7,347 nucleotides of DNA, taken from IMG/VR virus record IMGVR_UViG_2698536628_000012; one strand, written 5' to 3'. Positions 1 through 3,000 of the stretch are shown piece after piece. The first letter of the stretch is position 1. Every line of letters begins with the position of its first letter. This stretch comes from a virus. Its lineage: Duplodnaviria; Heunggongvirae; Uroviricota; Caudoviricetes. A program made the position numbers.

Positions 1-3000
1 CCACGATTTACTCTCCCCCAAATAAAAAGGCCTGCGATTACCAGCAGGCCTGTTATTAGCTCAGTGATGTAGATGGTCATCTTTTAACTCCATATACCGC
101 CAATACCCGTTTCATCGCGGCACTCTGGCGACACTCCTTAAAAATTAGGTTCGTGCTCATCTTTCCTTCCCGTTCTTCCTTGGTAGCAAACCGGTAATAC
201 ACCGTTCGCCAGACCTTACCTTCGATAACCAGAAGACCTGCCCGTGCCATTTTAGCCGCGGCCTGATTTATGCTGGTTACTGTTGCGCCTGTTAGCGCGG
301 CAACGTCCGGCGCACAGAAGCTATTATGCGTCCCCAGGTAATGAATAATTGCCTCTTTGCCCGTCATACACTTGCTCCTTTCAGTCCGAACTTAGCTTTG
401 AGTTCTGCGATCTTCGCCAGAGCCTGTGCACGATTTAGAGGTCTACCGCCCATGACAGGAAGTTGTTTTACTGGTTCAGGGATCGCCTCACCACGGTTAA
501 TTCTCGCAGTCATATGGACAAGCTCATCTGCGGCCTTACGGCGTAATTCCGCATCAGTAAGCGCATTGGCCCGCATGTTCTGATACAGGTTGGTAACCAG
601 CCAGTAGTGCGCGTTTGATTTCCACGGATAAGACTCCGCATCCGGATACAGGCCTCGCTTCCGGCAATACTCGTAAACCATATCAACCAGCTCGCTGACG
701 TTTGGCAGTCCGGCGATAACGGATGCTTCTTCCCGGCACCATGCAACAAACTGCCCGGGTGATGGCAGGAATGGTCGATTCTGCCGACGGGCTACGCGCA
801 TTCCTGCGTTAACCTGTTCCATTGTGGTGATCCCGTTTTCCCGGAAAGCCAGAACCCACTGGCGGCGGATTTCGTTCAGTTCGTTCTGGTCACGGTTAGC
901 CAGGCTCGCCGGGAAAGTTGCCAGTAACTGGCTGAACACACCGTTGATGATCTGCGCTACCTGNNNNNNNNNNNNNNNNNCTGCCTGTTGCTTGTTACGG
1001 TTGATTTCGAGCTGGGTCCACTTGTCGCGGAGTTTGGCCGGACTCAGCACGTTACCGGACCAGAAGTTGTCCTGGCAGGCCCAGCGGAAAAGCACACACA
1101 TATCGCGGTGGTTACGTCCGTCACGTTCACGCATCAGGCGGATATCGTTAGCCCACCCTGCAAAATTCGGTTTTCTGGCTGATGGTGCGATGGTCTTCAC
1201 CATGTCAAACATCCACTCTGCGGCGGTCAGGTCTTCTGCTGTTCCCCACTTGCTGCCGCTCTGAATTGCAGCATCCGGTTTAACCACAGAAAGATCGTTT
1301 TCTGGCTGGTCAGAGGATTCGCCAGAATTCTCGGACGAATAATCTTTTCTTTTTTCTTTTGTAATAGTGTCTTTTGTGTCCCCCTGTTTTGAGGGATAGC
1401 AATCCCCTAATTTGAGGGATGTTTTATCCCTCGTTTTAGGGGATTTTCCCTCGTTTTGAGGGATGTCCCTCATTTTAGGGGAACCTCCCTCGTTTTGAGG
1501 GATGCACCATTCTGAGATGTTTTTATTTGGTCCAAACATGCCGCCTTGCTGCTTGATAATATTCATTCTGACGAGTTCTAACTTGGCTTCATTGCACCGT
1601 TTGACAGGTAACTTTGTAATCTCGCTAAGTTGAGAATCGGTGATTCTGTCCATTGGTTTATTCCACCCATAGGTTTTACGCAGAATGGCAAGCAGCACTT
1701 TAAACTGTCGCTTGGTCAGATCTGCGCCTGAATAGGCCTCAAGCAGCATATTTGATAGTCTGGCGTAACCATCATCGAGATCTGCCACATTACGCTCCTG
1801 TTCGGCAAAGTTACCTCTGCCGAAGTTGAGTATTTTTGCTGTATTTGTCATAATGACTCCTGTGGATTGATCCAGTAATTCCCTCAGAATTCCATCTGGA
1901 TTTGTTCAGAACGCTCGGTCTTGCACACCGGGCGTTTTTTATTGGTGAGTCCATCAAGCGCATACTTAAAAGCTCTGCTAATCGGACTGATGTCTGATGC
2001 CATTCCGAAAGCACACAAGACCGAAGCAATAAATCTCCAGTCCGTTCTGCTTATCTTCGATTCATGACAGCCAATCATCTTTGCCAGACCGCGCTGGGTA
2101 AGCGTTGACAGGTTGATAAGTAAATCTGTTTCTGCGCGATCAACATCACGCTGTGATAGTTTGCTGTAACTTGTTTGTTCCATTTCTTAAGATTTCCAAT
2201 AGTGAATAGCTAGTTGAAAGGTATGCGTGGAAACGCATATGGCCTTAGTTGGTCAGATATCTTGGAACTCGCTTTTCAGCGACGTAGGACGAATGTCCGT
2301 TGTTACAAAGAGCGGGGTTACTTATGCTGCTGATGCTCTACGCGATACGAACACCAGATTTTCCTTTTTCACAGGTTTATAACCCGTGAAATTACGAGTG
2401 GCTTCTTCGATTGCATTCGCTTTATCTGGGGAAGCTCTTCGAAACCCATATACAATCTGATCAAGATAGCCAACTGAAGTATTCGCTAATGCGGCGAGTC
2501 GCTTCCATTCCTCACTAGAAGCCTCTTTTCGCCAGCGTAGTAGTTCATTACTCATTAGTGCCTCCGTTTATCACACAGAGCGACTTTACCATTTTGATAA
2601 ATAAAACGCAATGAAGATTTATCAAAATGCATATTTATCCATTTGCTAAATAGAGGGAGAATCGTGGGATGGAAAACAAAGATATTCGCAAATCGAATCT
2701 GGCGTTTTTGCTAGATGAGCATAAAAAAATCGCGGGTAACACTAATGCAAGCTTTGCCGATAAGCTTGGAGTTAGCCCTTCTCAACTCACGCAAGTCTCC
2801 GGTGAAAAAAGCACTCGAAACATAGGGGATAAACTAGCAAGAAAATTCGAAGCCGCACTTGGGTTACCTAATGGGTGGCTTGATTTGGTACATGATGTAA
2901 CACCAATTGCATCATGCTCAGATTCTTTAACTTTTGTCGGTCAGGTAAGAAAAGGGTTAGTGCGCGTGGTTGGTGAGGCAATTCTTGGTGTTGATGGTGC

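Follow-up and report, generated by a model that had tools for sequence, protein, structure and literature searches.

A lambda-type replication origin, in the six-iteron form of phages H-19B, 933W, and P27, almost certainly lies within gene O of a lambdoid prophage at positions 1338-1503 of the DNA analyzed here, a stretch of 7347 nucleotides that is referred to below as the window. This assignment was made by comparing its sequence with characterized origins. No evidence contradicts the identification, and doubt is confined to the part played by the additional iteron pair. The six-iteron form is already annotated (GenBank AF125520), published, and experimentally studied, and the finding of six iterons confirms only that the window has the common origin type of Shiga toxin (Stx) phages. 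The increment provided by the present analysis is that the number of iterons is polymorphic (3, 4, 5, 6, and 8) and that the six-iteron ori also occurs in a prophage without stx. Because replication of lambdoid prophages drives Shiga toxin production, such differences are relevant to research on virulence.

Six dyad-symmetric iterons of the O-binding type are arranged in a row on the minus strand within gene O (Table 1). All 7347 bases of the window were searched with the 17-mer consensus TCCCYYAAAWYRRGGGA, allowing at most one mismatch, and also with a regular expression. The consensus matched the six iteron sites, at 1502-1486, 1482-1466, 1463-1447, 1443-1427, 1419-1403, and 1396-1379, and no other place in the window, with 0.00 matches expected by chance (200 shuffles). 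The six iterons claimed in the earlier note at 1379-1503 were thus found again, coordinates included. A stricter consensus, TCCCYYNNNNNNRRGGGA, recovered just three of the six. The start-to-start distances between neighboring iterons are 20, 19, 20, 24, and 23 bp, and Tandem Repeats Finder described the tandem units as a repeat with a period of 39, 2.0 copies, and 89% matches; a direct comparison of the two units gave 4 mismatches in 39 positions. Directly after iteron 4, the GC content is 22.5% (1340-1379), which marks the AT-rich tract. Rfam, applied at gathering thresholds, gave zero matches across the whole window.

Table 1. Features of the replication region in the window (positions refer to the window)
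Feature	Positions	Strand	Basis or remark
Gene P, loader of the host DnaB helicase, visible part	364-963	minus	Pfam Phage_lambda_P, alignment to 933W and lambda; 5' end under the N run
Run of 17 N	964-980		Replaces 166 bp (3' end of O and 5' end of P)
Gene O, replication initiator, visible part	981-1851	minus	ORF, start codon at 1851; Pfam Phage_rep_O
AT-rich region of ori, presumed unwinding element	1338-1378	minus	GC profile; same as the lambda tract
Iteron 4, TCCCTCAAAACAGGGGGA	1379-1396	minus	Consensus match, lambda/933W comparison; adjoins the AT-rich region
Iteron 3, ATCCCTCAAATTAGGGGA	1403-1420	minus	Consensus match, lambda alignment; Stx-phage variant (3* in PMC7466680)
Iteron 2, ATCCCCTAAAACGAGGGA	1427-1444	minus	Consensus match, lambda/933W comparison
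Iteron 1'', ATCCCTCAAAACGAGGGA	1447-1464	minus	Consensus match, lambda/933W comparison; same sequence as iteron 1
Iteron 1', TTCCCCTAAAATGAGGGA	1466-1483	minus	"ori iteron 2" of AF125520; without lambda counterpart
Iteron 1, ATCCCTCAAAACGAGGGA	1486-1503	minus	"ori iteron 1" of AF125520; most distant from the AT-rich region
Tandem 39-bp units (1504-1466 and 1465-1427)	1427-1504	minus	Each comprises two iterons and 13 codons

The product of gene O starts with MTNTAKILNFGRGNF... and matched Phage_rep_O (PF04492) over residues 22-115 with E = 6e-36. Gene P follows directly downstream, and its product matched Phage_lambda_P (PF06992) with E = 3.5e-62. The junction of the two genes is masked by the run of N, which hides the last ~68 nt of O and creates an artificial O-P fusion ORF of 495 aa (364-1851). 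In the genome of strain H19, which matches the window at 100%, the junction is intact, O (939 bp) and P (702 bp) are separate genes, and the stretch corresponding to the window comprises 7496 bp as compared with 7347 bp. The N run hides the 3' end of O, and the length of 312 aa was therefore taken from the H19 genome; the insertion itself was read in the window's own translation. O is likewise 312 aa long in 933W and H-19B, as compared with 299 aa in lambda. The O protein is ~99% identical to O of lambda, 933W, and H-19B and essentially identical to that of H-19B.

Translation of the tandem units gave IPQNEGGSPKMRD / IPQNEGKSPKTRD (O residues 117-142), each unit of 13 residues being encoded by two iterons, exactly as the earlier note had read it. 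The 13 residues that O has in excess of its lambda counterpart are residues 117-129. Since the match to Phage_rep_O stops at residue 115, the insertion sits directly after the DNA-binding domain. Hydrophobic residues make up 18% of the segment 117-199, as compared with about 41% on both flanks. Judged by the Pfam domain boundary and this composition, the segment that carries the insertion fits the description of a linker. A single-sequence AlphaFold model of the 290 visible residues was poor (mean pLDDT 42) and had no secondary structure at 106-204; a predicted model of this quality cannot serve as evidence for a disordered linker in O. A search by sequence for a solved structure of O found none.

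The relation to known origins became evident from alignment. A stretch of 401 bp around the iterons (1250-1650) was 100% identical to phage 933W and likewise to Stx2 phage I, BP-4795, P27, P32, P22, PA28, and dozens of Stx1a phages. In GenBank, the entry for 933W (AF125520) labels six sites within O, from "ori iteron 1" to "ori iteron 6". The entry for lambda (J02459) has four iterons in its annotation, and the number given in the earlier note was therefore correct; the notion that lambda already has six fails. An independent description of lambda ori likewise counts four iterons, of 18 bp each, together with an AT-rich tract of 38 bp (PMC3349717). In a three-way alignment the window equaled 933W, and lambda was short by exactly 39 bp, with only a handful of other base differences and the same AT-rich tract. 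The iterons of the window could be aligned base by base with those of lambda and 933W. Relative to lambda, the extra 39 bp supply two more potential binding sites for O and, at the same time, 13 more residues in the protein, so that origin architecture and O linker are altered together as had been proposed. The earlier note had also proposed an in-frame duplication of two iterons over 39 bp. The exact size of the gap agrees with that proposal; its direction is not given by two sequences alone and is taken up below.

Identity of 100% over the whole window was found with a prophage that lies beside ybhC and an integrase gene in O26:H11 and O111 strains including H19 (matching locus L003, NZ_AP027165.1 874372-905867). 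Phage records covered 64% of the window at most. The genes of the window follow the order of the lambda map: TolA-like ORF, sieB, N, cI, cro, cII, O, P, and ren. In the H19 prophage, the interval from Q to the holin gene is free of annotated stx genes, which indicates that the six-iteron type of origin is not confined to toxin-carrying phages. The H19 prophage was thus not found to be a Shiga toxin phage, a result that has no bearing on its type of origin. Several further features were recorded in the window. In the leftward operon, an N-antiterminator homologue (PF25694) is encoded at 4611-4883 (plus strand) and SieB (PF14163) at 4907-5446 (minus strand). An ORF of 120 aa between cI and N (3642-4004, plus strand) had no family match. 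An ORF of 286 aa at 5810-6670 (plus strand), with a high content of E, A, K, and R, had no match in Pfam and contains weak tandem repeats at 6170-6297; its counterpart is named "cell envelope biogenesis protein TolA" in RefSeq and is a pseudogene with an internal stop in H19.

The difference between six and four iterons has been in the literature since 2009, and biochemical tests of it followed in 2017 and 2020. Nejman et al. 2009 are credited with the first description of six iterons by Kozlowska et al. 2020 (PMC7466680), who report six iterons in the ori of Stx phages as compared with four in lambda as well as the 13 extra residues of O. Tests of O binding and of ori function, which the earlier note had suggested for six versus four iterons, are therefore already available, and they were done on an origin sequence that is the same as that of the window (P27, 933W). 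The binding and replication functions of the window's ori are taken from this literature and would apply to it by virtue of the shared sequence. In EMSA experiments, every single iteron was bound by O. DMS footprints of the whole origin showed strong occupancy at the four AT-proximal iterons only, the two distal ones being weakly or hardly occupied. A P27-derived plasmid no longer gave transformants when iteron 1 or 1' was mutated, and regulation of replication is reported to differ between plasmids derived from lambda and from Stx phages. According to the authors' proposal, the distal iterons would increase the local concentration of O or stabilize the O-some for an Stx-type O that binds more weakly (all PMC7466680). 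An article on non-lambdoid Stx phages (PMC8044961) makes no mention of iterons.

The two mutations are not equivalent when they are read in the frame of O. The mutation in iteron 1 of PMC7466680 is synonymous. Primers Mut1'Fd/Mut1'Rev in Table 1 of that article contain ...AAA ATG AGT GAC..., in which AGT takes the place of wild-type AGG; by our reading, the iteron 1' mutation changes Arg to Ser, whereas the methods section states that O was unaltered. With a residue of O changed as well, it is less certain that the effect of the iteron 1' mutation is due to the DNA site alone. Moreover, the result that the distal iterons are essential comes from one plasmid system.

From what is known of lambda and from PMC7466680, initiation at this origin would proceed as follows. 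O dimers would bind the dyad-symmetric iterons via their N-terminal domain, and the bound DNA would be bent into an O-some that destabilizes the adjoining AT-rich tract. O would then recruit the P-DnaB complex, from which host chaperones would free DnaB. Compared with lambda, the extra unit of two iterons lies at the end of the array far from the AT-rich tract, and since the iterons also serve as codons, O is longer by 13 residues directly after its DNA-binding domain. A duplication from four to six might have occurred when iterons slipped or exchanged unequally.

The six-iteron form is common. A probe of 74 nt, which can be matched by a six-iteron origin alone, found this junction in 72 phage records and, at 572 places, in 364 of 5,426 complete Escherichia coli genomes. 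A probe for the lambda-type junction hit about 1,076 records at an identity of at least 95%. A scan of IMG/VR covered at least 120 loci, which form a non-random sample. Among the matches listed, at least 57 loci had four iterons and at least 56 had six; eight, five, and three iterons were each present at one locus at least, and the array was truncated or interrupted at four or more.

Arrays of other sizes were traced to individual prophages. A probe for a third 39-bp unit had full-length matches in three complete genomes. In NZ_CP074958.1 (L128, 3903704-3904681), eight iterons are accompanied by an intact O of 325 aa; the cI, cro, cII, and P proteins of this prophage have the same accessions as those of the prophage that matches the window. 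Its two distal units, i.e. the iteron pairs 1-1', are mutually identical, suggesting that the expansion is recent. Eight iterons are also present in NZ_CP038425.1 (L126), where IS1203 has split O immediately upstream of iteron 1, and an eight-iteron allele with a third 39-bp unit was seen at 10126-10290 of locus L069. Five iterons occur together with a frameshifted O in NZ_CP020106.1 (L127) and in an IMG/VR locus (L081), and three iterons with a broken O in L018. Taken together, O was intact in alleles with four, six, and eight iterons, and the five- and three-iteron alleles that were found all had a broken O. In the literature covered here, a search for eight iterons in lambdoid phages found no paper. 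The repeated natural change in size of the iteron block, eight-iteron alleles included, may therefore be unreported, which would be a small increment.

Could the extra unit be an error in assembling or sequencing a repeat? The window does contain a run of N and is thus an imperfect or masked record. However, 72 phage records and 364 complete genomes, which come from many laboratories, carry this six-iteron sequence without a single base difference, and it has been cloned and used in experiments (PMC7466680). We rejected this explanation; with so many independent records carrying an identical sequence, it is effectively refuted. As to the direction of the change, Salmonella phage epsilon34, which is more distant (~83% identity), has four diverged iterons with the 20/24/23 spacing of lambda. 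The count in relatives is thus six for 933W and four for both lambda and epsilon34, and because the more distant phage has four, parsimony, with epsilon34 as the single outgroup, favors four as the putative ancestral number and six as the probable product of a duplication. It is unlikely that six were ancestral and that the lambda type arose by deletion of 39 bp between the identical iterons 1 and 1''. Deletions of this kind do occur: at locus L103, a four-iteron array has an Stx-type iteron 3, and its iteron 2 follows the GGT spacer typical of unit A, as would be expected had a six-iteron origin lost 39 bp. In line with this, the G/A polymorphism in iteron 3 is not strictly linked to presence or absence of the 39-bp unit (L097, L099, and L115 versus L006 and L044). 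The four lambda-spaced iterons of epsilon34 speak against a six-iteron ancestor, as do the eight-iteron alleles, in which expansion by a 39-bp unit is directly seen.

We tentatively consider it possible that the iteron block is a coding minisatellite whose 39-bp unit is repeatedly gained and lost among closely related prophages, and that origin architecture and O-linker length have been co-varied, perhaps even tuned, in natural populations. It is rather unlikely that the extra iteron pair, together with the 13 residues, represents a nearly neutral variation in length of such a coding minisatellite, with no required role in initiation. That proposal would account for the confinement of strong footprints to the four AT-proximal iterons, and it agrees with statements in literature cited in PMC7466680 that two iterons are sufficient in vitro and that lambda with three iterons grows normally (Moore 1981). 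The intact O of natural alleles with four, six, and eight iterons points the same way, as does the about equal frequency of four and six in the samples. The loss of plasmid transformation upon the synonymous mutation of iteron 1 is difficult to reconcile with neutrality, and so is the reported difference in replication control between lambda and Stx-phage plasmids.

Compared with known systems, the origin of the window resembles lambda ori in its position inside O, the iteron consensus, the last three spacings, the AT-rich tract, and the near-identical O and P proteins. Lambda ori differs in having one 39-bp unit fewer, and thus four iterons (ITN1-4) and an O of 299 aa. Its iteron 3 has a G where the window and the Stx-phage type have the A of TTAGGGG, and it has an A at the site corresponding to window position 1333, which is a C in the window and likewise in 933W. 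This position belongs to an imperfect palindrome beyond the AT-rich tract (TCCGAGAATTCTGGCGAATCCTCTGA as compared with TCAGAG... in lambda), and one base pair of the dyad is lost with the C. The ori of the Stx phages 933W, H-19B, and P27 (iterons 1, 1', 1'', 2, 3*, and 4) agrees with that of the window in its iterons, the iteron-3 variant, and the 13 extra residues of O. In theta plasmids such as pSC101, R6K, and RK2, the iterons are not known to lie inside the coding sequence of the initiator, and the initiators would be unrelated in family; a change in iteron copy number would therefore leave the initiator protein of these plasmids unaltered. What they share with the origin of the window, as general knowledge and part of a review (PMC5043065) have it, is an array of initiator-binding repeats beside an AT-rich unwinding element.
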